DNA of 64,000 nt from the NCBI RefSeq assembly GCF_964204865.1, contig NC_135253.1, positions 18,662,001-18,726,000 of the forward strand, read 5' to 3'. The position numbers were made by a program, and so were the translations under genes. This document shows, piece after piece, positions 10,548 through 42,519 of this stretch. Position 1 is the stretch's first letter, and each line of letters begins with the position of its first letter. This DNA comes from Styela clava (lineage: Eukaryota). The notes under the pieces were generated by a model, which worked only from the letters and a program-made list of their open reading frames with translations, was not told the DNA's origin and did no database searches.

Positions 10548-10931
10548 ATGCCTATTTTAGGTCTATTTGGAAACAAGGGTTTCAGCCCCAAAAAAGCCTC
10601 ACCAAGAAAAGCAGCATCATTGTCAAACTTAGCCGCACTCGATGCTACACAAAGAGCTCAAGAATTTGGATTAGATTATGGTTCTGCATCTCTCAAACTC
10701 AATGGTACCCAACTTAAATTTGAAGATGGGACGTGGCACGCTGATACGGGGTCATCATTGCCACAGAGAGAAGTTGTAAAGTTACGTAAAGATAATCAGA
10801 AACTTCTGGAAGAAAATAACATGTTGAAACTGAAAATTGACATTTTGCTGGATATGTTATCAGAAAGTGCAGCCGAATGTCATATACTAGAAAAAGAGAG
10901 AGATGAGGCGCTGAAAACTGGGAAATTCTAG
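10548..10931 (+). CDS. CBY1: Protein chibby homolog (127 aa; alternative start in an upstream exon at 10074)
   Basis: FGNKGFSPKK, RKAASLSNL, FGLDYG, LKFEDGTW and the coiled coil LLEENNMLKLKIDILLDMLSE are Chibby hallmarks. Acceptor at 10532; upstream donor ACCATGG|GTAAGG at 10077/10078. Confidence 0.95.
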   Translation: MPILGLFGNKGFSPKKASPRKAASLSNLAALDATQRAQEFGLDYGSASLKLNGTQLKFEDGTWHADTGSSLPQREVVKLRKDNQKLLEENNMLKLKIDILLDMLSESAAECHILEKERDEALKTGKF

Positions 10932-14927: not shown

Positions 14928-15649
14928 ATGCAGTACGGATCTGGCGAATACGATGTACGTCGGGCATTGGAATCGTACCCAGCTCCAAGAGTTCGCCCCG
15001 AAGCAGTGGAAATCGCGGATCGACACAGGGGAATGGGCATGAAGACTTGTATGGATATGCCAAAAAGATCTACGTTTGGAAGACAACAAGGTATGTTAAA
15101 TTATTTTATTTTTATGTCAGTAATGATACCATATTTCAGTATTTACTGACTGACTGAGTCTTGTTTATTTATTATCAAATCACTTGTTTCCAACCTTACC
15201 CAATTTATAATGTATCATGTCCTTTTGTTATTTTTTGACATTCAACAGCTCAGTGCCTGAAATCATATTTTAAATAACAGATAATGTTAACCCTTAGTCT
15301 GTTAGTGCAGCAGTGCAAAGTCTTGAGATGTAAAAAATGCTAGGCCTAGGGTGGTGTAGCCAGTCTGCGGACGATTTCATTTGAACCGCTATAAAACAAA
15401 AACCAATATTTCTAACCCGTTAATATTTTCACCGTGGGTGCATTGGCATTACTTCTACATGCTAAACCTCTTGCTTTAGACCAGGGGTTAAAGCTATACA
15501 AACCACCAAAGTACGACACTCTGAAGACGTATTTGCAACCAAACGACCAGGTGCGACCACGGATTTCAAGCCTTGAACATCCTGACATCGTTTCTGCTGC
15601 GTCGAGACTAGGGCATACGCAGCCATTCGTGAAAAAAATGGGCTTCTAA
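14928..15649 (+). CDS. Short 110-aa two-exon product (ENKD1 exon 1 plus alternative terminal exon, or a separate upstream gene)
   Basis: The phase-1 donor at 15090 fits acceptor ttgctttag|15480. The frame stays open (DQGLKLYKPPKY...VKKMGF*) to 15649, followed by AATAAA at 15699-15704. Confidence 0.6.
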
Positions 15650-18600
15650 TTGCATTTCTGACTGTCATATAGACTATTTTAAGAACACGGGTATTTCGAA
15701 TAAAACTCGTCAAATTATAAACAAAGCACCACATCACAGCAATCAAACAGACAAAAACACAGTGGTCACAAATTGGTCGACAAAGCTATTATTGACTTAT
15801 CGGAAATGCGCACTCCCCTATTCCCCCTCCTTTAAATGTAGAAACACGAAGTGGGTAAGCCACCCTATAATCAGTCAATCATTGATATAACAGTATAAAT
15901 TACAAATTAAAAGTGAAATACATTGTTTTTAAATATTTACAGATTTACGATCAAACCATGACAATGTCAGATTATGAAACACATCTTTATTATTCATTTT
16001 TGCTTCAGTTCATTTATTCTGCAATATAGGATTAAGCGATGATTAAGTTTTAAATAAGGATGTCTAGACAATCAATAGATATTGATTTGTTATAAATATT
16101 TATGTCCTAGTATACTTGCATTAGTATAGGATATGTTACCACTTCAATCAATAAATTATATTGCGGCAAAATCTTGAAATAGAGGCTTTGGTACTCCCGT
16201 AGTATGTGTACCAGGTTAGGGTTAGGCCATAATTTTTCTTATTCAACCTATATTACGAGTTCGGGGACTGTCTGTGTTAGCCAAGTGAATAGTAAAATAG
16301 GCGAACAGACTTTGTTACCTCCATATTGGTACACACACTTCTGGAGCAATTGAGGCTTTTCTTATATAATACTTATGAACTATCTTATATTTTTTATTTC
16401 TGCTTCAAACATATGGGCTAATCAGATATTTTGTTCAATTCAGCTCAATCCATGAATGTAACACAAACAAATGGGCCGATGCGTCACATGGGAATTCGTT
16501 CTCCCATTCTCGTTGATCCAACTTATAATGGAGGAAAGTATTCGAATCGTTCTGTAAGACCTGTTCCTAGAGTAAAACCAGAAGCCCAAGATGTTGCAAT
16601 CAAAGCAAAAGGAAGCATGGATGTTGTCATGGGTCAATATGGAAAACCAGATCCTGGTAAGACAGTAGTATTTATAACTGTTCAGAATTTACTGGAATAT
16701 TGGATTTTTGAATTGTTTACACTGGCATATCTGGAATTCAGTAATATCCTTGATCATTTAGTAAAGCCTGATCAATTTAATAACATGCATTCATTGGTGA
16801 AATGAAAAATTGGTTGATGAACCCTAATTCTTAGAAGTGTAATTCCAATATATTGAACCTCATTCCATCTGAACAATAGATTATCAAATTATAATTTAAT
16901 AGGCTATATAAGTTATAAGGATGTTATATTTTTCTGTTGACTGTTGCTAGTTTGCACCATAGTCAGTTATCAAAATTTAAACTGTGTGTTATTTTCAGTG
17001 TATTATGGTGAATCTAGAGGTGCGGAGAATATAAATCCAAAAGAAGGACCATTGAGAAAAGCTGGAGTAAAAGGACCAATTCTGGTTGATCCAATTTATA
17101 ACAAAGGTTTGTTCATAGTTTGCAGTGTTGGGTTGAGAAAACAATTGCTTTTTGTATATCTTGTGACTGTTTTATATATTTCTATGATCTTGCAATTGAC
17201 TTGCCAAACTGGGCTTCCACAATTCTTACCTTATTACATCTATGGTTGCTTTGAGATGATCATGTAATATACGAACGCATTAATGAATTATTCATTGAGC
17301 ACAGAGTGGTTGAAAGCCCAACATATATCTTATTGTTTGCTCTATCTACCACTTTCATCCATTGAGTTGTTAGTAGGGATGGGACGAGTCCGGCATTACA
17401 AAGATTCGACGAATCCGAGTAATAGGTCAAGGAATCGAATCGAATCTGCCGAGTCCGTGACGTCATAATGGAATAGCACAAAAACGTGTTTTAGACCATG
17501 CTACAGCATCGTGCGCTCACAAACATACGTCGTAGCTCATATTTTTTGCCTAATGGTTCCGCAGATAGCTGTTGAGTCATTTTAAATATATATTTTTTCT
17601 CTTTTTAGGCGGCCATAATACAAACGTAAACGTGGTCAATGTGCGCCTTGGCTGTGAACTGGATTTCCAGCCCACCTTGCGTCAATTCTGGGCAGCTATT
17701 CAGAATTTCTTACATGTCAACATGAACAATAAAAAGCGTTCGACTACAATGCTTTCCCATAATTCCAAATATTTCTAGCCGTAAATTTACTATGTCATGT
17801 GCGCATATGGTAGAGAAATACCACTCGTCGTCAATACAATGTAGTACATCTACTTGCAATTTAGTAGTTCATGTAAACGTTCTAAAACTCTCCATCCTTT
17901 CCATTGCCTTTTTAGCGAAAGGATTCCACGCAATAAACTCGATTTAAAAGAGGTATTGATGAGATTCCCTATTGGGTAGATCCAGAACATGTTTTATTTT
18001 TACGCAAATCAAAAACTCAAAAATATTGCAATACCACATATTTTATTGTGTACCACATGTATACCAAAAAGAATAGATAGTTTGAAGGCGACTGGCGCAA
18101 CATCATTGCTATGAGCGATCAATAGTTTTCAACTATCATTATATTATCTGGATATCTGTCGTCGTTTTATTAGGAGTGTTTATATTGCACACGAAGGATA
18201 TTGTTACAGATCTAACCTTGAATTTTACTAGTTAAGGTATGTAGTGGGATTTATAGAGGCAAAAGTACAAACATAGACGTAAATTAGTAAAAACAGAATT
18301 GATTATGGACTCGGTAAAAACGACGTGGACTCGAAATCGAATCCGATTCCAAAAAATGCCTGGATTCGACTCGAATCCGAGTCCGGATCCGAATCCCGGC
18401 CCATCCCTAGTTGTTAGGTATTCCCATGCGTGATTCAGAAAAGAGTATTGTTCCACATAAGACGGCTTTGGAACTCAATCCCAGAACCTTTCTCCTATCA
18501 TTTCCAAAATGTTATTCATTCCATACTAGGATATTGTTATCTATCTGGTATACAGCAAATTTGTGCCCAATCCTGTTTCAATTAGGCCTGTATGATACTT

Positions 18601-21600
18601 AGTATGGCAGATACACAAATCTTTATAATAGATGAATTTATCAATTTAGGACTTCCGATATCAAGCTTGAACTTTAGACATTCCTGGAGTTTAATTGAAC
18701 AAAAAATGTTAGAGCTCGTAATGCCTAAATTTGATTTTTAGGTCAATACACAGGAAGGAGTCCCAAACCAGTTCCGAGAGTTAAATCAGAAGCTAGTGAA
18801 ATAGCCGAGAAACATAAAGGTTGCATCCAAAATTTACTAAAAACACCAGATGTTCGTCAGTTTACACAAGCTAAACCAAGTATGTTTGCAATACGAAACT
18901 TTTGATGAACTGATATGAAAAGTCAAGCAATGAGACCGACAGTTGGTTTGAGCGTTTATTCAAAAAAACATAAGGAACATGCTTTTCAGTGTACTGCTCA
19001 TTACCTTGTACGGTTTTCTTAGTTTGACTCCTCGTCACCAGCTCTGATATAAAAAAAAATTCTGATAAAAAATATTGGAGTATACGAGCGTTCTTTAATG
19101 GTCTGTTGAGAATTCTTAATCAACTTAACATTTTTATTTTGTGCAGGAAATTTAGACTTTGCTCCACCACCATTATTAAAGTCTAAAATTTTGTTTAAAA
19201 ATATTAAAAATTCCAACTGAGAAATTTCAAGATACAACTCTGGCTCCGATTCCAATATTAATAGTTCGCATGCCAAACTGCGATTACTCATTTATGCAGA
19301 CCAAGTGCGAAATATTCATTATTTACTAGAAAAACAACCGGTTGACCATGGAGAGGCAAACGTACGACGAATGAGACAAATTCAGAAACAATCAAGGAAC
19401 AAGGAAAAAGAAAAAGAACAAAATAAACCAACCCCGGTAAAAGCATTGTGGAAATCAACGAGATATGAAAGTGTCGAATCTAAAGTTAAAACAACATTTG
19501 AGGTATGAATTTGTTTCTTTGGAATTATATTAATAAAAATCAAGTCTCTCTCTTCAAGACTAACATAATCTCTTTCTGTGAAATAGCAAGTATATTTGTA
19601 AGCTTTCGGTATATTATAATATAACTTTTTCAGATAAAACAAGATATGGCCTAATCAAATAGCAATAATACTTTGTCTATTTTGTGGAAGCAGATTATGT
19701 TATTCTTATTTATCTTTATAATACTATCTTGTTCAAGCATCCTTGTGGCAACTGACACACACGGTGTTGTAGTGGAAAGTAAACATGGAGAAAGGACTTG
19801 CAGTTCAGTACTCAATACCCTAGTACACTCCATTCTGGCATCTCTCTCTTTACTCTCATCTCATGCTATACTGTTACTTTTTTAAAGTTAGAGCTTTATT
19901 TTAGCCAATGGTGGACCGTAGATGGTCTGCATGAATATACATGATACTTTCAAAGTTCGATAGCATCAAACCATTGAAATTAAGAATCACTGTGTCATTT
20001 ATTTGCCACATTGTTGTTTTTTCTCTCTTTGATATGGACATGAAATTCCTTTTCTATTCCTCTACTTTGCCATTTATATCTTTCCCTTTTCAATCTTTAG
20101 CCAACGCCAAGAGCTCCAAGAGGTGTGCCACCACGACCTGGTTCCGCCCCTCCAAGTTATGACAGACCAAGTTCAGCACCAGCTGGTGGACGTCAAAATG
20201 CAGATAGACATACAGGACAAAGGGCCCGATATTCAGAAACACCATTGACACCGAAACGGGTGAGACAACACACTTAGTACCACATCAATGTTCTTCCAAT
20301 CATTATATTTATAACATGCTTGTCATTCAAGAGATTATTCCAAAAAATTAAGTTGTATGAAATTGAAACATTGCACTTAACAAACAAGTTTGATTTATAA
20401 AACATGAAAAAAAAACTGTTGGTTATGTGGGGAGACAACAAAATTTATTTGTGGAGGACTTTTTCCTTATTTTGTGATTCTGGCACTGTTTACTTAAAAG
20501 ATTTTTTTTCTCTTAATAGAAGAAGCCTTTTCTATATATTTTATGAGACTGTGCATATCAAAAAATATATTCAAGCAATATAAAGTATTTGCTGGAAATC
20601 TATGCATATATATTGATATTTGGCACATCATGCTAATTCTTGCAAACATGCACTTGTTTGAAGTATTTACAAGGTGATTGCTGTCTGTCTCATAACACGC
20701 CTGTTCCCTATTATTCAAGTAGTAAAAATTTTCCAGCTCTGCTCATGATGGTTCATTCGCTTATTTTTCAGCAAGCAGAACGCAGAGCAGAAGACTTCAT
20801 TGCAAGGAATGCAAGATTAGCGAAATCATATAAACCTCAGCGTTCTAAGTCTCAAATGGAAGTCGATAGATCTCAAGAAAAGTATTATGATGGAATAAAG
20901 AAATATAATAACACTGTGAAAGGATCATCTCCTTCATAGTAAGTATAAATATTATTGAAATATTCAATTATCATAAATTTTCCCTCCTAATGTATTTATG
21001 CCAAAAAATTGAACATTTAAAAGAAAGTTTCAATAAGAATCTTAAATTGCCCACTTGTAGAGGAGTGGCTGATAGACTTACATGATAGCTTATAAATGTT
21101 TCAAACCAATGGGTTGGGCTTAGCTAGATTGATCAGGACGTAAACTTGAGATAGCTAGATATAGTTTGGACTATGTAGGCCTACTAGTAATCACTTGATC
21201 GTTTCATTCGTTATTTTCTTGTATACAATATAGTAGAAACTGTGTGTTCAAACTCCACACATACTAACATAAGTATTCACGCCCGAATTATCTTTCGCGT
21301 ATTTTTTTGAAATTTATTTCAACGTGTTATTTGCTCTTTTGGGTGAATGGGCACTTGTATCACCACGTCTTAAAACTTTTCAGATTTTGCCTACTTTCCT
21401 GATTTTTCGTATATTTGTTCGTTTTGTCCTGTATTGCTTCTTCGCTTTGCTGTAACGGAAAATCGAAATAAACCTGCTTACCCACTTACTTATTAATTTA
21501 TGACTACTTTTATACAGCTTACAAGCAAGACAAAGGGAATGGGCTCGAGCAGAACAAAATAGAATCAGAAATATTCCTGACCCAACTGTACCAGATGGTC

Positions 21601-24600
21601 ATACAGTGTTGCCAGATAGAGACAGAAAAGACACATTAAATATTCTAAGACAAAGTAAGTAAAATAATAGAATCAAATAGGAACACAGTTGCATCAAGCA
21701 GACACAACTTTTTGTTATTAATTTTGACAGAAAAAAAATATATTTGAGGCATTTTGCAACGTTTTTTCTTGATTTTCAATCCTTTTTTCTTTCCGTTCAT
21801 TCTCGCTATTCCTCCTTCCTGGTCGCCATGAAGCCGCCATGTAAAGAGACTTTCTGTCTGTCTGTTTTTAAAGTTAGTCTTCCAATGAACAAGCTGCTTG
21901 CTTACCTTCAAGTTATAATTTTATCTTGAACCGAATATTATATTTGCGGAGAAGAGTATCCAACAATAAGAATTTTATTTCTCGTATTTGGGAATAGAAG
22001 TGCATGTTTGTTTGTTTTTTTGATATATTACACTAACATGCTATTATATATACATTATCAAGCGTAAACTAGGAATGCACTATGTGGTTTCTATATTATG
22101 TTCAAAAGGACATGACTTATCGCATCTTATCATCATCATATTCTTTACTAACTTCAACTCATAGCAAAACACACAGAGACAACCAAAGTGAAAGAAAAAG
22201 TTTCAATGCCGTATCACGGAAATATACAATATGGCTACTACGATGAGTATTACTCACCCGAGACTGTCTCAGTTGAGAGAAAGGAAAAACGTAAGTTTGT
22301 TGAGAAAACAACATATCAAATACCTGATGAAGGCTACGGAAGCGAATCGAATAACTACCATACAAACCAGTATTTGCATGGTAACGAAAGTGGATATGGG
22401 CAGGTAGGGGATCGTGATGATGGTGAATATTATTCTACATATGCTGAAGACAAATTCGCCCCATCAAGCGAGATTGAAAATTATCATTACAGCGACTCAC
22501 CAGGCGTAGAATACAGGAATCAATATGAAGAACATGGTAAATTGTACCCGAAATACACACAGTATGGTAGAAATGGAGATGAAAGGGATGCTTATTATGA
22601 TTCTGTTGGCAATGTGATTCATAATATTAGCTACAGTCAAAATCCTCAACCTCGACCTCCAACATCAAACAACCGATATCGGTTTGAACAAAGGAATCCT
22701 ACTTCATATTACACAGAAGATCATGTTGTATATGATCATGGGGGAAAGATCAGTAATCAAGACAAGAGAAAATCTGTTTCAAAATACCAAGCAAAAGAAA
22801 TTGGTGATGGGTACACAAGAATTGAAAAAGGTAAAACCATCCATAAAGAGAAAGAAAAGGTGACTCGAGAGTATGCTCCAACAACTTATAAGCCTCAACA
22901 ACCATCACATTTATTTATTGACAAAGGTTATCAACAATATCCATATCAAAGCTACATTCATCAAGATGACGACTTCAACCACAATATGCAATTACAGAAT
23001 GGATATAACCCAGCACAAAATTGGCAATATCTACAAACCAGAGGATATAATCAGGCTGTTAACACTCGTCCAAATGAAAGTCTATATCAGAATCGACCTA
23101 CAAATCCAGAAGGTAGAACTCGCTCTGTGGTCTATGGTAATCAAGGCTATTACACACCTGAAAACAACAAAGCGGGCTATTCTCTTTACCCTGGATATAG
23201 AAGAAATTCGACACCACACTATTATGCAGAATCTACTTCTTGTGAACAAGGCATTCCAGCAATGCCTGATGATCAACCCACTGCTCGACAAGTTAGGTTT
23301 CTATCACCTTCACCACCAAGCACGGCACCATCCCAACAAGCTTACAGGAGAGAAAATACCCCAGAAATGCAAGCAAGACTCAATGCAGCTGCTTCAAAGA
23401 CCTCATACAGAGATGAGTTCAAGGACCCTGGTCCAGATGCAAGAATGGCTCGTCATGGACCTAATTTTTCTACAGATTTCACAGAAAGTCATAAGGTGCT
23501 TTTACACATGCATGGTGGTAGAAAAAATGGTACTCCAGAAGTATGTGCATCGAGATGGCGGACATCTGGTAACTGGTTAGGGTTAGGCCATAATTTCAGG
23601 CACAAATACTACGAGAGTCACTTGGCTAATCCCTGAACTCGTAATAGAACTGAAATAGGGAAAATTAGAATGAAATTACGGCCTAATCCTAACCTGGCAC
23701 ACATACTACGTTCCGGTGACCGCCATCTTGTTGCACATACTTCTGGAGCGCCGAAAAAATTCTGCATAATACGCATGGAAAAATCTGTTGTTTTTCATAA
23801 GTCTTTAAATTTCAAATCAAAAAGCACCTTATGATTTTTTGTGCATGTCAAATCCAATCAATAGTTATTTGAACTTACCATCTAATTGTGATTCCTGTAC
23901 TATTTATTATGTATAATTCGAGTAGCAAAATATTTATGCTATAGATCAGAGGTGTGCAACCTGCAGGCCAAATGCGGACCACAAGAATAATTGTGCGGCT
24001 TGTGGAGAAGTGCCAGTTTTGAATGGTGTGCGGCCCACGAAACGAGTTTTTAATATAGTTTAAGCTGCTAGTGCGAGTAATTCCAATCCCTTTGCGTTGC
24101 AAAGCATATATACCTAAGTCCAATTTATTATCTATGACGTTACAATGCCCTGACAGCTAGCTTGTGCGAAACGAACAACGCATGTCATAAGATCAATAAT
24201 CAAAATTTTTGTGCCTGCAACTACAAGAAAGTCCATGTTAAATAAGAGTGCGGCCCATGATTCTGCCCAGTTATTTGTATTTGGCCAGCCTGTGTTAAAG
24301 GTTGCACACCCCTGCTATAGAATATAGAGTATCAAATCAATATTTGTTTACCATCTCATTTTGTCTCCTGATCTATGTATTATCTTTAGCGTGACCCCAG
24401 GAATAACACCCCTGCATTTATGATTTACCTATATGAAAATGAAGAAGAATATTTAGCACTCGAACCTTCTTTTGTGCATGATTGTAACTAAAAGTTTAGT
24501 AATCTAGGACGCTCTGCACAAAAGTTTAGACTTTCAACGAGAGTAAATCAAGTTTGAATCAGCAATAGGCTCTAACATTTGACACTGTGACATAGCTAGC

Positions 24601-25178
24601 CTCTAACACACTCAACTTTCTTTACCAGATTTTTTTCACATGACTCTTGCATATCCACAGTTTCTTAAATCTTTTACATCACATTTCATCTTAACATTGT
24701 CTATATTCACAACCTTCCTTTAAATATGAATCAATTTTTTATTTTGACTATGAAAATAGTTGGAACTTTATGACAGTTGTTTTTCAATGTTTTATCGAGA
24801 GTTATTGTTTGTTCATATTATAACTAAGCAAAGTAAAACTAAGCATTACTTCTGCAACTTGTTGTTTCATGTTTCTCATGTTTTTTTGTCTTTTTTGATA
24901 TCAAAAGGACTATGCAGATCGAATTACATACATTTTTTAGAAAGTACATTCGAGCAAAAGTAAATTTATAACTTGCTATTTAATTGCAATAAGTAATTTC
25001 TGTCTGTTTTATAGGTCAACTCGACTTACTACAGGAATACAGATTCCTGCCAGTACGTTCAGCCGACTCTTTTGGAGTACGTCAGCGGAAGACTGAGTTA
25101 GAACGAAGAATCGCAGAAGTTGATGAAGCAGTTCGTGTGTTTGAGAGACCGAGAGTATTTGTAAAAATGGATGAATGA
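14928..25178 (+). CDS. ENKD1: Enkurin domain-containing protein 1 (9-exon model, 473 aa; may instead start at ATG 16452)
   Basis: Exons 14928-15090, 16444-16656, 16999-17106, 18742-18879, 19330-19502, 20101-20259, 20772-20938, 21518-21654, 25015-25178, all GT-AG and phase-consistent. Motifs DHGEANVRRMRQIQ, PVKALWKSTRYESVESKV, DFIARNAR, PDPTVPDGHTVLP and EVDEAVRVFERPRVFVKMDE* match ENKD1. Confidence 0.9.
16190..16351. mobile_element. Merlin-like MITE, copy 2
   Basis: GGTACTCCCGTAGTATGTG... terminus, internal GGTTAGGGTTAGG, 8-bp TSD GAGGCTTT. Confidence 0.85.
17374..18409. mobile_element. Non-autonomous hAT-like element in ENKD1 intron 3
   Basis: TIR TAGGGATGGG/CCCATCCCTA; perfect TSD GTTGTTAG; subterminal GATTCG/CGAATC arrays. 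Confidence 0.9.
19685..19830 (+). repeat. Dispersed intronic repeat with GGAGAAAGGACT core, copy 2
   Basis: gattatgttattcttatttatctttataatactatc...catccttgtg...agtaaacatggagaaaggacttgcagttc. Confidence 0.7.
22165..24491 (+). CDS. Tyr/Gln/Asn-rich coding unit nested in ENKD1 intron 8 (alternative 3' exons, or a nested gene from ATG 22206)
   Basis: Acceptor ctcatag|22165 is in phase 1, matching ENKD1 exon 8. Open exon of 1331 nt to AAG|GTGCTT at 23495, then a phase-0 terminal exon 24390-24491 (RDPRNNTPAFMIYLYENEEEY...CN*). The ORF-track tail 23496-23636 is read-through into a MITE. Confidence 0.75.
23529..23752. mobile_element. Merlin-like MITE, copy 3
   Basis: GGTACTCCAGAAGTATGTGCA / TGCACATACTTCTGGAGCGCC; TSD GAAAAAAT; internal GGTTAGGGTTAGG. 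Confidence 0.9.
23947..24314. mobile_element. hAT (Charlie-like) MITE
   Basis: TIR CAGAGGTGTGCAACCT / AGGTTGCACACCCCTG; TSD CTATAGAT/CTATAGAA. Confidence 0.85.
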
Positions 25179-26422
25179 ATTGCAATATCATAATAATAAG
25201 CGATTCTATTCAAATATTGCAACATAAATGAATTAGCAATGTTGTTATTTGTTGCACAATGATTCAGTATGTGAAGGGTGTTTATGGATTGATTACTCTT
25301 ATCACTTTTGAGTAATGTAGTTTGGATTTAAGCATAGTTACTCTAGTTGCGATTACAGCTATTTTTGATTGAAATATTAGAATTTCAGTCTCAATTATGG
25401 TAGTAAATTGAATATAGATGTATCTGTAATAAAACAAGATACCAGGGGTTGTGCCAAAGGAACTATTTCTGTACGTTATTTTTGCACCATTTCATTTATT
25501 ATTCTATACACTGTAATTAATCACTTTATATACTGCAATTCGTTAAATTTATATTTTTAGATTTAAATTTTTCTCTATATACGTTTGTAAAAAATCTGTT
25601 TGAAATAACTGTTGTTGAAATTTTTATACTATGTTATTTAGTTCAATTTACTCAATTTTTTTAATATGTTATCATGCATTGTAATTGAATAATCGAATAA
25701 GTTAAGCTCAGAAATATGTGAGATTTGTGAAGATATCGCATACAATATTTATGCTTTAATATAAAGTAATTACTAGACGTAAAAGTAGAACAATCATTGG
25801 TTATTATTGAAGAATGATTTTCCATTACTACAAAGTAATAAATACACAATATGCACACTTGACCAATACCTGCATGATGCTTCTTGATAGACAAGAAGAT
25901 AGTTTAGGTGGAGATAGGAGACCATTCTTCACCAATGTCGTGTTTTTCTGTCCTGCTGAACAAAACTGCTTGTGGACTCTGGAGCAACAAATTGCAATAA
26001 CAACCAACTGTGGTGGTGTCTCTGGAGTGACGTGGTCCTACACTTGTCCCCTATAGGTAAAATGTAACAATAATTATCCGGTCTGTTTCGTTTGTCTTAC
26101 TTTTGAACGACGCTATATTATAGTTACGGTTAGGATGAAATGCCGTATAACCTTTAACGACTGATGCTTTTTAATAGTATCGAAGTTACGGCAAAATGAC
26201 ACTTGAATATTCAACCGTAACCGGTAACGCTTTTTAAAAGTATTGAAGTTCCTCAAATCCTGATTAAGCATTTAACGACGCATTGACGTTTTAATCGCAT
26301 CTTCCGCCTTGACATGTCATGTCAACACAAAAACGGGCTTCAGCAGATAACCAAGTGAGTGACCAAATGTTGCGCTACGAATGCAAGTCTGCTAAAGAGG
26401 TAATTTGGAGCATGTGCTAGAG

Positions 26423-30366: not shown

Positions 30367-33300
30367 ATGTTTGGTAACATGTTTGAGGAGCCAGAGATGG
30401 AGGAAGAGAAAGGAAAAGCTTCAAGTCCTGCGAAAATAAATGGGAGCAAGGTTGAGGCACCTCCGCCTGGAAGGGGAGAGACTGGTTTTTGTGGAATTAA
30501 AAATCAAGGAGCTACGTGTTATTTAAACTCTCTTATTCAAACGTTGTTACTAACTCCCGAGTTACGAGAAGAATTATTTCGATTGGGACCTGACGAGTTG
30601 GGAAAATTGCAAGATGTAAAAAAGAAAAATGCTAAAGTTCGGAAAATTCCAATTCAATTACAGATGCTATTGGCCAGACTTTTATTGCTTGACCAGTATG
30701 CTTGCACTACTGAGGGGCTGACCGAGAGCTTTGGATGGGTAGATAGTGAGGAGTTACAACAACATGACGTCCAAGAGTTGAGTAGAATATTATTTTGTGC
30801 TATTGAAGATTCTTTGATTGGAACCTCTGGGCATGATATTATAAAAAACCTGTATCGTGGTACATCTGCCAACACAATAACTTGTCTAAGCTGTGGAAAA
30901 GTGAGTGAAAATACGGAAGATTTCTTAGATCTTAACATTGCTATTTCCTCGCACAGCAATCTTGCAGCAGTACTTCGTGATATGTTTGTTGATACTGAAC
31001 TAATGAATGGAAAAAATCAATATCGTTGCGATCAATGTCAAAAACTTGTTGATGCTAGAAAAGGAGCCGTGATAAAAACCCTTCCACCTATATTAACGAT
31101 CTCATTGCTGAGATTTAGCTTCGATTATAACACATTTCGAAGGTTCAAAGAAACTAGGAAATTTGAATTCCCGCTATCACTCAGTATGAAGTCCTATTGT
31201 GAAAAGACGTGTGATGAAAAATCTGCATGTTATGATTATGAATTGTATTCTGTAATTATTCATTCGGGTAGCGCCCATGGTGGGCATTATCATGCATACA
31301 TTCGCGATATTGATGGTCTGGGGACTGTCCCTCCTAATTATAACCCCACTCCACCTAAAATCATACCACCCATGCCAGAAAAAAGTGATGCAGCAGCTTG
31401 TGATTATATTGAAGACCCACTTGATATGCTTGCATATGTTTTAGGCAAACTCGGTGGAGAAAACGTCCCAATGAATAAATTGGGTGAAGCGTTTCGAGAT
31501 GAAAGTGGAACATCGTGGGGTAAACAGTACAAAAGAAAATACGGCACAATGACTAAATTCTTACAGAGCTGCTATGATACTTTTATTGTCGATACAAGAA
31601 CGAAAACAGTATCATTTCGAAGCAATATTGGAAAATCATCATCTGAGATGAATAATTCTGAATCACCTGTATATCCACAATCATGTGAAAATGGTGCTGG
31701 TGGTGATGCAAGCCGACAATATAAATCTACTGAACTGGTGAACGGGGTTACGGACACCAACATTGAAGATTCTGGTTTTAATGGAAATGTCGTGAGTGAA
31801 CCTATTGCTATCGAATCTGACACTGCAGATGACACCGACACACATCCGCTATGTAATGTCTGGTTTGATTTCAATGACTCTCACGTTAAACCTATTACAA
31901 CCCATGATATTATCACTCAATATGAGGGACGCGAGAGTGCTTATATGTTGTTTTATAGAAGAAAGGATCTTAAGAGACCATTAGAATCGCTTGGTAATTT
32001 GACTAATGGCATTCCTGACCATATAAGAGCAAAAATACAAGAGGAAAATTGTGATTTGGATGAACTACGAAATGAATATGATGTTTATTTAAACGTCGTA
32101 ACAGTGCGAGTTTTCTTCCCCAAAATGTTGAAGCTTGAAAATGGTTTGATTAAATTAATTGACCCAGAGAACAAAGGCCCAAACGAGTGTGGGTTTTCTT
32201 ATTCAATCGACAGACGGAAAAACATTGGAGACATGGTAGAGGAATTAACGCAGATGGCAGAAAAACATCAGGACGATACTTCTAATAAAGATTGTGAAAA
32301 AATACAATGCAATATAATGAAAATACTCGGCCATGGTGGCATTCACATATACGAACAAATTGACTCTAATTTGAGCACACCCATAAATGAATCTCTACTC
32401 GAGAACGGAGTGAACGTCATTTTATGGGACGGCGATAAGTTAGAGGGGGTGGAAGTAAAATTTGGTGAACTGAATGAACCCATTGTACTTGATGTTCATT
32501 GCAGAATCTCTGGTGATGACAGTCTGGTTTCTTTTCATTTCAAAGGTATTACTTTCGGTAATGTTATCATAAGTGAACTGCAAGATTATTTTCTACAAAA
32601 ATTTAAGTTGCAAACTGTGACCCAAAGTAAACTTGGAACTAAAGGAGAAAATGACAACCTGGTTGAATTCAAAGAAAATGAACTTGGAAAAACTTTAAGA
32701 GAAGTGACCAAGTCATTCGATGAAAATTTAATTCTTGAAATATCACTTCCAAATGATGATATGTCTCAAAATGGAAATAAAGATGACGACTTAACTTTAA
32801 AAATTGTGCCGGGAGAGAAACTAGAACAAACACTGTTTGCGTCCAGGTATTTTGATTCTCCTGATAATATTTTCATAACAACGGCCATAAGTGGAACCGT
32901 GAAAGTAAATTCATACATTCGAGTTGAACATTTGAAATTTTCTATGTTGCATTGGCTCTTACCTGACTTCAAGAATGATTACGAGCTAGATAACCTCCAT
33001 TTGTATATTCAAAAATCTTCTGAGGATGTTTCTGACAGTTTGAAACTGTGCTTACATGAAAAACAAAGCCTGCTTCAGGCAGGGTTATCCAGCAGTGTGG
33101 AATCTGTGAGACTAGAGATTGGACAGCCTATTGATAAAAAAGAGTATCATGTAACTGTTTATATTCAAAACGGAAGTAAGTTGAAATTACCTGTTAAAAA
33201 GTCTCAAGCTGTTCATGCTGTATTAAACAAGAATTGCACTGTGAATCAGTTCATCGATAAAATTGTTTTAGAGCACAATCTTTCGGATGGGATACGACAT

Positions 33301-34398
33301 CTTAGAATATTAAAATCAGAAAAAGAAGCCGGTGAAATATTAACAAGCCCAGAAGCAGTCATTGAAAAAACATCTATAAAACATGGTTCTACTCTTGTTC
33401 TTTGTCCGGGAGGTATTCCATCTGATGGTCAAATTGGAATTCCAGTTTGGTATTATCCTAAAAGATCTTCGTTTGAAGATGTCTTATCTGAAATAGAGCA
33501 TGGTGCTAACCTATCTGTTTGGAATCCATTTTTGAATGAAATAAGGACGCAACCAAAATTAGCTGGCTCTGTTGAGGTAGAAAAAGATGCAACTTTATTT
33601 GATCTAAAGCAAGAAATTGTTAAGCTCGGTTTTTTTGTTGAAAAGAATTTGATTAAAATCGAAGATATTTGTCTTCGTTCAATTTCACATAAATTTCCAT
33701 CTCGTTTTCATTTACAAGAAAATTCCAGTATAAAGCGGTTACGTCTTGGATCAAACACACCTATTGCTGTCCAAAAGACTGAGGCTTTGCCCAAACCAGA
33801 ATGTGTAATACTAAACCTTTTGTTTCAAATACCAGGAAGCAGAGATTATACTAATGCTTGTGAACTAAATTGGGAGAAATCGCACCCACTTGCACGACTT
33901 CCTGCCATGCTGAGTGAAAAATTAAACATTCCTATTAAAGAATTACTTCTTGCAAAAAGAGGAGAAGAACCTTGGGAATGGGATATTATCAAAGCAAAAG
34001 ATTGCGATCAAAAATCAAAAGATGCAAAAAATAAATCTAAAAAAGGTGCTAAGCAAAAAAAGGCTCAGGGAAAATCAAACAAAAACAAAAAATTGAGTGG
34101 TGGAAAAACTGGACAAGCTATACTGTCCCCTCTCGATGGAGACCTGATTCGCGTTAAACACATCTCTCCTGAGTTGCAAACATCGGAAAGTCCAGAGGTT
34201 TCTGATTTCCGAACTGAGGAAGATTTAACACTGAGAAAGAAACATGAGGATTCTAAATCAAGGGAAACAAATGGACATACTCCTCAAATTGAGGATGGAA
34301 ATTCTGAGGCAAGCACTACTTCTCCGAGTTCTGAAACAAAGAAAACTTCCAAAGTCAGAAAAGAAGAAACTTTAAAGATTCATGTCGACAAGTTTTGA
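30367..34398 (+). CDS. USP40: Ubiquitin carboxyl-terminal hydrolase 40 (1343 aa, single-exon CDS)
   Basis: N-terminus MFGNMFEE; Cys box GIKNQGATCYLNS; QHDVQELSRILF; His box HSGSAHGGHYHAYIRD; WFDFNDSHV; YEGRESAYMLFYRRK; C-terminal E-x-LKIHV. All typical of USP40. Confidence 0.93.
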   Translation: MFGNMFEEPEMEEEKGKASSPAKINGSKVEAPPPGRGETGFCGIKNQGATCYLNSLIQTLLLTPELREELFRLGPDELGKLQDVKKKNAKVRKIPIQLQMLLARLLLLDQYACTTEGLTESFGWVDSEELQQHDVQELSRILFCAIEDSLIGTSGHDIIKNLYRGTSANTITCLSCGKVSENTEDFLDLNIAISSHSNLAAVLRDMFVDTELMNGKNQYRCDQCQKLVDARKGAVIKTLPPILTISLLRFSFDYNTFRRFKETRKFEFPLSLSMKSYCEKTCDEKSACYDYELYSVIIHSGSAHGGHYHAYIRDIDGLGTVPPNYNPTPPKIIPPMPEKSDAAACDYIEDPLDMLAYVLGKLGGENVPMNKLGEAFRDESGTSWGKQYKRKYGTMTKFLQSCYDTFIVDTRTKTVSFRSNIGKSSSEMNNSESPVYPQSCENGAGGDASRQYKSTELVNGVTDTNIEDSGFNGNVVSEPIAIESDTADDTDTHPLCNVWFDFNDSHVKPITTHDIITQYEGRESAYMLFYRRKDLKRPLESLGNLTNGIPDHIRAKIQEENCDLDELRNEYDVYLNVVTVRVFFPKMLKLENGLIKLIDPENKGPNECGFSYSIDRRKNIGDMVEELTQMAEKHQDDTSNKDCEKIQCNIMKILGHGGIHIYEQIDSNLSTPINESLLENGVNVILWDGDKLEGVEVKFGELNEPIVLDVHCRISGDDSLVSFHFKGITFGNVIISELQDYFLQKFKLQTVTQSKLGTKGENDNLVEFKENELGKTLREVTKSFDENLILEISLPNDDMSQNGNKDDDLTLKIVPGEKLEQTLFASRYFDSPDNIFITTAISGTVKVNSYIRVEHLKFSMLHWLLPDFKNDYELDNLHLYIQKSSEDVSDSLKLCLHEKQSLLQAGLSSSVESVRLEIGQPIDKKEYHVTVYIQNGSKLKLPVKKSQAVHAVLNKNCTVNQFIDKIVLEHNLSDGIRHLRILKSEKEAGEILTSPEAVIEKTSIKHGSTLVLCPGGIPSDGQIGIPVWYYPKRSSFEDVLSEIEHGANLSVWNPFLNEIRTQPKLAGSVEVEKDATLFDLKQEIVKLGFFVEKNLIKIEDICLRSISHKFPSRFHLQENSSIKRLRLGSNTPIAVQKTEALPKPECVILNLLFQIPGSRDYTNACELNWEKSHPLARLPAMLSEKLNIPIKELLLAKRGEEPWEWDIIKAKDCDQKSKDAKNKSKKGAKQKKAQGKSNKNKKLSGGKTGQAILSPLDGDLIRVKHISPELQTSESPEVSDFRTEEDLTLRKKHEDSKSRETNGHTPQIEDGNSEASTTSPSSETKKTSKVRKEETLKIHVDKF

Positions 34399-41212: not shown

Positions 41213-42115
41213 TTAATATGACAAAGCATGTTCTTCAGATTCCACTTGTCTAATATTAATATTGATGCGAGCATTTTGCAGGTAAAAAGAAAGAAAATCG
41301 TCATTTTCAAACTTTAGTCTGGTCGATGGCATGATACGTGGCACAGCATGATAGGCTGTGCGAGCTTTTCCACTCATAATCAGAACATCGCCAGACCTGA
41401 GAAGCAAAGGAATTGGCTTGATGTCCTTTTCTTCACCACCTATCAGGAAAATGGCATCCAAACCAAGGCTTATTGAGAATAATGGTATGGTTAAATCTGC
41501 CTCAGATATGTCTTTATGGGGCGATAGTGTTGACCCTACGTGATAATAGTTTATAATTGCGGCTTCTGGGGTGTAATTTTTGAAACCCAATGCATCGAAT
41601 ACTTCTGAACAAATGTTTGCGAGTTCAGAAGGAAAATCGGATTTTGATTCTCTTTCATATCTTCTTGTATTCCAATTATGGTGATATCCAATAGTACTCC
41701 ATCTAATTTTCCATATCGGTGTCGTTTTCAAGAAATCAAAATCTCTTTTTTCGTTACAAGATTTGAAAGCTTCAACACTGTCACTCCAAGCAGTGTCAAT
41801 TGATTCTTTACTTTGAAAAGGGTCTAAATTGGTAGAGTAGGGTGATACAGTGAAATCTTTGACACATTTTTTTGCCCAGTGCTTTTGTTCCTCATCAGAA
41901 AATATACCTTTAGCAAAGTATAACCCAGAAACATCATTAACAGAATAGATTTCCCATGTCCTAGAAGCATTTGGTAATTCAACTTTTGATACTTTTCCAT
42001 CAAGGGTCGAAACGTGTTCGAAATCTATTACATTTTCGAATGAAGGAGTAACAGCTTTCTGTTTGTAATATTTAAATTCAGATTTGAAGTTGTCAATTAC
42101 TTCAACAGCTGACAT
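41213..42115 (-). CDS. ALKBH1: AlkB homolog 1, Fe(II)/2-oxoglutarate dioxygenase (300 aa, intronless CDS)
   Basis: FKYYKQ, KIRWSTIGYHHNW, PEAAIINYY, HKD (HxD), LRSGDVLIMSG..R.AYHAVPRI, RININIRQV. First ATG at 42115. Confidence 0.95.
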   Translation of the reverse strand: MSAVEVIDNFKSEFKYYKQKAVTPSFENVIDFEHVSTLDGKVSKVELPNASRTWEIYSVNDVSGLYFAKGIFSDEEQKHWAKKCVKDFTVSPYSTNLDPFQSKESIDTAWSDSVEAFKSCNEKRDFDFLKTTPIWKIRWSTIGYHHNWNTRRYERESKSDFPSELANICSEVFDALGFKNYTPEAAIINYYHVGSTLSPHKDISEADLTIPLFSISLGLDAIFLIGGEEKDIKPIPLLLRSGDVLIMSGKARTAYHAVPRIMPSTRLKFENDDFLSFYLQNARININIRQVESEEHALSY

Positions 42116-42195
42116 GTCATAGCTTATATAACACAACAAGATAAAATTTTCTATTAGAGAATCAAAGTTTGCAAATTAGTGATATATTTTTGATA

Positions 42196-42438
42196 TTACT
42201 CTGGCCCGCCTCGTTGAATGTATTCCACTTCGTGAATGTCTATAAGTCTTCTACGAAATCTTTGAGGTACAACTCTGAAAACTTCTATAGTGTCTGGCTC
42301 GCTGGCAGTTCTTGATTGAGTTATATTCGGTATGGCTTGAGCTGTTGGTGCTTCTGGAATTTTTGGCGTCCACTTTAGTCGTGTTGGAAACTTAATCAAT
42401 GGTACATGTGCTTTCACAGTTTGTATCGCACGACTCAT
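42196..42438 (-). CDS. KGD4: Alpha-ketoglutarate dehydrogenase component 4 / MRPS36 (80 aa)
   Basis: VKAHVPLIKFP near the N-terminus and PQRFRRR..EVEYIQRGGPE at the C-terminus are diagnostic of MRPS36/KGD4. Confidence 0.93.
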   Translation of the reverse strand: MSRAIQTVKAHVPLIKFPTRLKWTPKIPEAPTAQAIPNITQSRTASEPDTIEVFRVVPQRFRRRLIDIHEVEYIQRGGPE

Positions 42439-42519
42439 TGTGTAAAGAATTAATTGAGACCAAAAATATTTTGCATTGAATACTGATTGCTGAAATTGAG
42501 ATAAAAAATTGTTTTGCAG

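Follow-up and report, generated by a model that had tools for sequence, protein, structure and literature searches.

According to the parts of the cited sources that were available, here and below, residues 1–250 of human ENKD1 pellet with microtubules and residues 250–346 do not (10.1101/2021.07.20.453048), and the bovine protein is an inner component of the B-tubule in the transition zone (10.64898/2026.06.11.731632). Proteins with an RVxF motif have been described that target PP1 to microtubules and flagella (PMC3654263), the PP1-docking consensus being [K/R]x(0-1)[V/I]x[F/W] (PMC6406801). Mn motifs, with the signature [TS]-[TS]-X4-[YF] (PMC10973386), are required for the activity of MAP6d1 (PMC12228683), and single Mn units are too short for profile searches (PMC10973386). 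The subject of this work is the ENKD1 gene of the ascidian Styela clava, contained in a stretch of 64,000 nucleotides (assembly GCF_964204865.1, contig NC_135253.1, positions 18,662,001 to 18,726,000 of the forward strand; hereafter the window, in whose numbering positions are given), and in particular an exon located in its last intron, hereafter the cassette. The evidence presented here suggests that ENKD1 in ascidians carries an old two-way splice switch within this intron: skipping of the cassette would yield ordinary ENKD1 of 473 amino acids, and its inclusion, joining exon 8 to 22165–23495 and the latter to 25015, would yield an isoform of 891 amino acids with its stop codon in the last exon. 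To our knowledge, frame-shifting splice events under very long selection are uncommon and have mostly been catalogued in vertebrates.

The locus was named by protein search as Styela ENKD1, RefSeq LOC120327044, isoform X2 of which was 100% identical. RefSeq isoform X1 (P0002) is canonical ENKD1 and equals the translation of a nine-exon model; the Pfam Enkurin domain spans its residues 369–465 (59.6 bits, cut-off 23.6), and the best solved relative of the host protein is an ENKD1 chain (11yj_8A, E 8.8e-60). Exons 1–8 (14928–21654) comprise 419 codons and one base, and contigs cover the 3′ untranslated region to about 25856. Isoform X2 (XP_077968216.1), of 458 amino acids, runs from Met 22206 to 23495 and ends with 28 residues encoded by the canonical last exon (25015) in a shifted frame.

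An earlier note on this DNA, made from the sequence alone, had described an open exon of 1331 nucleotides at 22165–23495, with an ATG of its own at 22206, and had proposed that it could replace the end of the enkurin domain. These points were borne out. The exon is preceded by AG and followed by GT, its phase of 1 matches ENKD1 exon 8, it lies in an open frame of 494 codons from stop to stop (22152–23636), and the ATG is present and used as the start of the RefSeq 458-amino acid model. Frames of at least 443 codons were seen in 0 of 1000 simulated introns (longest 265) and in 0 of 1000 simulations of exon composition (longest 268). Per codon, the synonymous codon score of the cassette was +0.010 in the reading frame and −0.11 and −0.13 in the two others, compared with +0.015, −0.13 and −0.11 for ENKD1. 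The cassette is a genuine coding exon in the last intron of ENKD1. A 238-codon frame at 22864–23580 was rejected as a shadow, having no Pfam match and, like shifted frames, a negative codon score. A transposon origin, which the note had kept in view, was not borne out, the cassette having neither a Pfam match nor a second copy in the window, and matching only itself among 1.84 billion representatives; no PDB chain was found at E ≤10.

Contigs from 4 of the 13 listed runs, one per study code (X1, X2, X3 and X12), were compared with the window. All are contigs, their origin from RNA being a guess for X1–X3 and unknown for X12, with no listed run recorded as RNA; a joint was taken as bridged when it had at least 31 letters of overhang, and the listing comprised 15 of the 149 joints and 32 of the 13,249 pieces. 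Within this material, transcript-like contigs cover the exon. The six joints between ENKD1 exons 1–7 were seen in all four runs, and the skipped form was found in single contigs of runs X2 and X3, the lengths of which (1034 and 1616) fit exons 4–8 plus 25015 onward exactly. Evidence of inclusion comes from the ends of contigs. A 1403-letter contig of run X1 on 22165–23493 has 30 unaligned letters before the cassette, 12 gap letters and, after the cassette, 32 unaligned letters including the two of the shared AG, and 30 + 1331 + 12 + 30 = 1403; gap letters over the cassette amount to 12, a multiple of 3, in contigs of run X1 and run X3. In run X12, one contig departs at donor 23495 with 32 unaligned letters, and a contig of exons 1–8 (1342 letters) ends exactly at 21654, and last-exon contigs of runs X12 and X1 start exactly at 25015. 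We infer that such lengths and ends arise where an assembly graph built from 31-letter words forms a bubble around a cassette. The full fusion of exon 8, cassette and 25015 in Styela, its junctions being deduced in this way, is likely. Read-through to the stop at 23636 as the main form was rejected, as it enters the foldback repeat described below; one run-X3 contig is unspliced there.

The downstream join proposed in the note did not fare as well. Rather than entering a terminal exon at 24390–24491, the RefSeq model joins 23495 to 25015, as do the Ciona and Clavelina orthologues; the products of 896 and 463 amino acids calculated in the note are arithmetically sound if 24390 is used, but the join under them is probably wrong. 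A weak donor at 23517, also put forward, matches 4 of 9 consensus positions, compared with 7 for 23495 and 6–8 for the eight ENKD1 donors, and found no support. Because the cassette length is not divisible by 3, the last exon is read in its second frame when the cassette is included.

Searches with the cassette made it look like an orphan exon. A protein search with the cassette alone found only the Styela RefSeq model among 1205 candidates and none among 1413 longer candidates, and an Atlas search gave scores of 0.78 and 0.76 with no usable match for the C-terminal part. This reading was overturned by a search with ENKD1 exon 2, which returned 10 proteins out of 22 candidates, the clusters of those from the two other ascidians below holding long isoforms. 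According to predicted RefSeq models, isoform X1 of Ciona intestinalis (P0013) has 782 amino acids and the canonical form 457, and isoforms X1/X2 of Clavelina lepadiformis have 686/683 and the canonical form 461. The Ciona and Clavelina X1 isoforms share 404 and 408 residues, respectively, with their canonical isoforms, and departure from the canonical sequence occurs at the same split codon in Styela, Ciona and Clavelina, followed by 443, 343 and 239 inserted residues. These species belong to three ascidian orders, and the presence of the same design at the same codon in all of them contradicts the description of the exon as lineage-specific. By sequence, and with the Styela junctions deduced as above, it is highly probable that the three share one cassette design. 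Seven further ENKD1 relatives were in clusters without a long form, and the 174 stretches of a metagenome scan contained 2 loci, each limited to the region of exon 5. No mention of the Styela, Ciona or Clavelina locus identifiers was found in the literature searched, from which subscription papers were mostly absent, and no paper on an ascidian ENKD1 isoform was found among the matches listed (one search, best 10 of 3,690).

Outside the cassette, the long isoforms have a conserved tail encoded in the last exon. Compared with the +1 frame of that exon in the canonical forms, the tails agree at 28/28 positions in Styela, 35/35 in Ciona and 39/39 in Clavelina, and tail-shuffling controls for the latter two gave a mean of 7–8 fitting positions and a maximum of 16–17. 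In the RefSeq models of all three species, one exon is thus annotated in two frames through alternative splicing. Since each +1-frame residue depends on the wobble base of a canonical codon, selection on the second frame was tested by simulation, drawing random synonymous codons for the three canonical proteins and assuming saturated and independent sites. Residues identical in all three species numbered 14 of 28, compared with a simulated mean of 3.9 and a maximum of 12 in 100,000 draws; the P values of pairwise identity were 0.004, <1e-5 and 0.002, and only 2.9% of draws left all three second frames open over 28 codons. At 13 codons for the same residue, the free third base was common to the three species in 7 (expected rate 0.11, P 2e-4), and three other free third bases differed in all three, so that such sites can saturate. 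The shared core reads TDSxxxVQPTLxEYxxGR. Taken at the level of sequence, these figures indicate that selection acts on the last exon in its second frame. Six of the seven further relatives were compared with the second-frame motif (P0011, which has no last exon, was left out): three are compatible and three, forming one clade, are incompatible; in the unrooted tree of relatives, that clade may either have lost the second frame or never have had it.

The body of the cassette presents a different picture. The Styela cassette contains 11.6% Tyr, 7.4% Asn, 7.2% Gln and 7.0% Gly, with Ser, Pro and Glu equally common; Gln + Asn amount to 14%, compared with 10% in canonical ENKD1, Asp + Glu to 13% and Lys + Arg to 12%. 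Of the richness in Tyr, Gln, Asn and Gly claimed in the note, that in Tyr stands and that in Gln and Asn is only modest. Prion-like domains are characterized by strong enrichment in Gln and Asn and few charges; the cassette is not of this kind, only one 50-residue block reaching 18 Gln + Asn. Across the three cassettes, Tyr is 8–11% (4% in ENKD1), Gln + Asn 11–14%, charged residues 21–26% and hydrophobic content 12–21%. Upon alignment, Ciona and Clavelina share one block (E 5e-7). The cassette appears to evolve fast, its body having diverged beyond detection between Styela and the other two, with Tyr-richness kept.

A common order of short motifs was found in the three cassettes: YAP[TKR], then a match to the RVxF consensus, then [TS][TS]YxxxF. 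The RVxF pattern occurs once per cassette in 3/3 species, with shuffle rates of 0.14, 0.09 and 0.18 (product 0.002), and [TS][TS]YxxxF in 3/3 cassettes, with a shuffle-rate product of 0.0008; the YAP and tighter patterns were picked post hoc, and their shuffle rates are not tests. The longer distance from the RVxF match to the exon end in Ciona is due to degenerate short repeats (PSDH...S, DSMLQPS), which were noted in its cassette (P0013) between the RVxF match and the Mn-like unit. The latter lies exactly 12 amino acids from the exon end in Ciona and Clavelina. Of the two Mn-like segments indicated in the note, TSYRDEF fits the published signature and is kept in Ciona and Clavelina, and FSTDFTESHK fails it, although relative to the exon end it is in register with the Ciona and Clavelina unit. 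There is one conserved unit per species, with no tandem array. No Pfam family besides Enkurin was found at E ≤1 and no PDB chain at E ≤10 for any of the cassettes, and inspection by eye revealed no NWE, PYG or SNYG partner motif near the Mn-like unit.

Inclusion would strongly affect the host protein. The long isoforms of Ciona and Clavelina cover positions 1–49 and 1–50 of the 92 of the Enkurin profile, and in the predicted canonical structure the cut falls within helix 407–429 and removes helix 439–463 and strand 468–470. An AlphaFold model of the Clavelina long isoform, built on a 3-sequence alignment, had predicted local confidence (pLDDT) <50 over 407–664, one weak tail helix and a predicted template modelling score (pTM) of 0.20; the tail was not seen to refold onto the half domain, the power of this test being low. 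The 891-amino acid isoform would retain residues 1–419, including the part that corresponds to the N-terminus by which human ENKD1 binds microtubules, so that we infer a long form that should still bind microtubules yet lose the enkurin fold. Decay is not expected for a transcript with its stop in the last exon, and not for the inclusion transcript because its stop lies there. In the proposed mechanism, the enkurin domain would be broken mid-helix, and in its place would follow a disordered linker, rich in Tyr and bearing an RVxF site as well as one Mn-like unit, closed by the conserved 28-residue tail from the second frame of the last exon. The product might act as a microtubule-anchored scaffold recruiting PP1 at centrioles or cilia, the Mn-like unit and the tail providing further contacts with tubulin or a partner. 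We hold this explanation, a splice switch giving an 891-amino acid, microtubule-anchored, PP1-recruiting disordered isoform, to be moderately probable as a whole. As to its parts, the chances of PP1 binding by the RVxF match are about even, those of tubulin binding by the Mn-like unit somewhat lower, both being read from motifs, and a ciliary or sperm location of the long isoform, also suggested in the note, is purely hypothetical.

In Styela, the cassette donor is covered by one arm of a 24-nucleotide inverted repeat. The arms are complementary at 22/24 positions as DNA, both mismatches becoming G.U pairs in RNA, and have 2 copies within the window. The energy of the donor-arm duplex was −33.9 kcal/mol, compared with −14.0 ± 2.3 in 200 resampled introns, and the duplex z of the other eight ENKD1 donors ranged from −1.9 to +1.7. 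A foldback repeat nested between the arms closes the gap between them. The arms could represent either a structure with a regulatory role or the termini of an old element; no target-site duplication was seen by eye at them, and Rfam gave 0 matches in 21600–25900. The duplex may hold inclusion down in Styela, a regulatory role that we advance only tentatively. A second miniature element, which we take to be hAT-like, was noted at 23935–24326, with 28-nucleotide inverted arms, a near-perfect 8-bp flanking duplication and high depth in 4/4 runs. A further extension of the proposal is speculative and rather improbable in its entirety: a switch predating the split of the three orders would turn a transition-zone inner protein into a phosphatase-recruiting scaffold, destroying the enkurin fold and supplying a disordered linker in which only the RVxF and the one Mn unit are under selection; TDSxxxVQPTLxEY would be an undescribed binding module overprinted on the enkurin-coding exon; and inclusion in Styela would be gated by the 24-bp RNA duplex by way of the nested foldback.

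Several observations weigh against the fusion and the functions assigned to it. No cassette junction is among the 15 listed of 149 joints, the letters of the overhangs not being displayed, and overhangs of 30 letters are one below the bridging rule. Run X12 shares its study code with the best-matching runs and so may depend on the assembly, and all runs are contigs with RNA guessed or, for X12, unknown. Run-X3 contigs are unspliced across both cassette borders, and run X2 has no cover in the bin 22180–22553. For the tail, the simulation assumes saturation and independence of synonymous sites, third bases of the last exon could also be held constant by a splice enhancer, and the Ciona and Clavelina codons were deduced from two protein frames and not read from DNA. 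For the cassette, that of Styela has no significant BLAST match to those of Ciona and Clavelina (best E 0.33 and 0.43). Shuffled sequences contain the loose Mn signature in 60–73% of cases (product 0.31), and the RVxF and Mn units were not brought into register by MAFFT, so that their homology rests on order and pattern; the distance from RVxF to the exon end varies (70, 187 and 51 amino acids). In the parts seen of the Ciona cilia and flagella proteome tables (PMC4427456), enkurin is listed, and ENKD1, C16orf48 and PP1 were not found.

The RefSeq Styela form itself begins at Met 22206, and no fusion of 754–2150 amino acids was found among the 1413 candidates, in keeping with another explanation, in which the Styela cassette mainly gives the separate 458-amino acid product of isoform X2, from an internal promoter or a trans-spliced leader, sharing the last exon. 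Low-depth contigs of runs X1, X2 and X3 on parts of 21699–22165, one of them unspliced into the exon, could be its 5′ untranslated region, and in Clavelina, too, a Met is found close to the start of the cassette, at a comparable position. Such a product as the main one is nevertheless unlikely, given the exactly 30 foreign letters before 22165 in the run-X1 contig, the end at 21654 of the run-X12 contig of exons 1–8, the match of phase and open frame to exon 8, and the modelling of the Ciona and Clavelina forms as fusions, that of Ciona without an early Met; product and fusion can coexist. Whether or not they do, the cassette might end on the private exon at 24390, giving 896 or 463 amino acids. 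The acceptor-like site and 33 open codons found there, the contig cover of 24424–24797 in 4/4 runs and a variant at 24393 in a run-X1 contig that ends 33 letters away, an ambiguous sign of possible splicing into 24390, speak for such an exon. It is very improbable, as no such RefSeq protein exists (cluster of 1), orthologues use the last exon, run X12 has no depth at 24393, a run-X2 contig is unspliced across 24390, and neither AATAAA nor ATTAAA occurs between 23496 and 25427. The variant, G>A in runs X1 and X2, would change a residue if 24390 were entered from the cassette, and would swap one stop for another if entered from exon 8, giving an ENKD1 truncated at 420 amino acids. A 41-nucleotide direct repeat (78%) at 23875–23915 and 24348–24388 includes the acceptor-like stretch before 24390 and may be a duplication remnant.

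Granted the fusion, its role could differ from that proposed. Along the lines suggested in the note, the long isoform might be a SAXO-like inner protein or a Tyr-driven condensate scaffold, the RVxF matches being due to chance; the Mn-like unit is the best conserved cassette motif, with its fixed position in Ciona and Clavelina, Tyr is twice as frequent as in ENKD1 or more in every cassette, and ENKD1 itself is a transition-zone inner protein (10.64898/2026.06.11.731632). The presence of a single unit with no repeat, the blank Pfam and PDB searches, the 11–14% of Gln + Asn accompanied by 21–26% of charged residues and the recurrence of RVxF in 3/3 cassettes make this rather unlikely. Alternatively, inclusion might be mainly an off-switch giving a dominant-negative or unstable truncation, with a functionless cassette and third bases kept as splice signals. 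The broken enkurin fold, a mostly unalignable cassette, the disorder predicted after residue 407 and the clade of three relatives incompatible with the second-frame motif would all agree with it. It is improbable, however, in view of the long open frame kept in three orders with normal codon use, the position of the stop, gap letters that in other individuals sum to a multiple of 3, motifs conserved in order, and a tail conserved far above simulation.

Features of the Styela clava ENKD1 locus and its last intron, in window positions
Feature	Positions	Strand	Remarks
ENKD1 coding exons 1–4	14928-15090, 16444-16656, 16999-17106, 18742-18879	+	
ENKD1 coding exons 5–8	19330-19502, 20101-20259, 20772-20938, 21518-21654	+	
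Branch-point-like word and cassette acceptor	22146-22164	+	CTAAC at 22148-22152; run-X1 contig piece starts exactly at 22165
Cassette exon	22165-23495	+	1331 nt, 443 codons; entered in phase 1, left in phase 0; Tyr-rich, charged, probably disordered product
In-frame ATG	22206-22208	+	start of RefSeq 458-aa (amino acid) model XP_077968216.1
YAPT	22872-22883	+	YAPK in Ciona, YAPR in Clavelina; chosen after seeing data
RQVRF, match to RVxF (PP1-docking)	23286-23300	+	KTVTF in Ciona, KYVTF in Clavelina
TSYRDEF, single Mn-like unit	23400-23420	+	TTYQEAF in Ciona, TTYRDSF in Clavelina
Left arm of 24-nt inverted repeat	23480-23503	+	covers cassette donor 23495/23496
Foldback miniature repeat	23533-23748	.	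nested between arms; other copies in window; very high contig depth
Right arm of inverted repeat	23820-23843	+	pairs with donor arm at 24/24 positions as sense RNA, two G.U pairs
Terminal exon of the earlier note	24390-24491	+	acceptor-like site, 33 open codons; in no annotated isoform found
Last exon, second frame	25015-25101	+	28 aa, stop TAG 25099-25101; dual-coding region
Last exon, canonical frame	25015-25178	+	encodes second half of enkurin domain

Other features of the gene and its surroundings were also noted. The N-terminus of tunicate ENKD1 consists of about 2.5 tandem copies of a module, GPILVDPxY...PRVxPEAxxIAxKxxG, encoded by exons 1–4 (14928–18879) and present in 9/9 aligned tunicate proteins; the alignment with the solved mammalian chain begins only at the last copy. 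A run-X2 ENKD1 contig begins at 14728 with 17 unaligned letters, at an AG behind a pyrimidine run, which could be a spliced-leader site. Upstream, on the same strand, lies a Chibby gene (10548–10931, Pfam PF14645), making an operon of cilia genes possible. Elsewhere in the window are an intronless ORF (open reading frame) of 1343 codons at 30367–34398, presumably a USP-family deubiquitinase (USP40-like), and two adjacent single-exon ORFs on the minus strand (41213–42519), 20 bases apart, which we assume to resemble ALKBH1 and MRPS36.

The cassette design of ENKD1 is in our judgement real, old and, as far as the literature was searched, undescribed. The isoforms already exist as RefSeq predictions; what is new is their conservation and anatomy. 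The earlier note had mentioned neither the second coding frame of the last exon nor the RVxF match kept among the three species nor the RNA duplex that covers the donor. A conserved cilia gene would have acquired a new motif overprinted on the exon of a folded domain, in a switch that would escape homology search owing to the orphan-like appearance of the cassette. Should the readings of the RVxF match and the Mn-like unit prove true, the switch would offer, in the tractable model Ciona, a testable way of bringing PP1 to the microtubules of centrioles or cilia. Among known systems, the nearest is ENKD1 itself, the host gene, the N-terminal part of which is kept in the long isoform; the latter differs by its half enkurin domain and a new C-terminus of 278–471 amino acids, an isoform not found in the parts of the ENKD1 literature available. 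With the MAP6/SAXO Mn-repeat and single-Mn inner proteins (PMC10973386, PMC12228683) it shares one [TS]-[TS]-X4-[YF] unit in probably disordered sequence of a microtubule protein, but the ENKD1 cassette, a putative binder, has neither a repeat array nor a profile match, and by the tests run the long isoform is not a SAXO family member. It likewise resembles PP1-targeting proteins such as TCTEX1D4 on microtubules and sperm flagella (PMC3654263, PMC6406801) in having an RVxF match in a probably disordered region of a microtubule-associated protein; unlike theirs, the putative ENKD1 site is supplied by an optional exon, and there is no sequence relationship. Finally, alternatively spliced dual-coding regions (10.64898/2026.05.28.727796), a catalogue of human genes as far as seen, the main text of which mentions neither ENKD1 nor "tunicate" in the parts available, have in common with this locus the frame-shifting splicing, the exon read in two frames, the different C-termini and selection on both; here, by contrast, the host is a tunicate gene and the trigger is a coding cassette of 0.7–1.3 kb, itself barely conserved.

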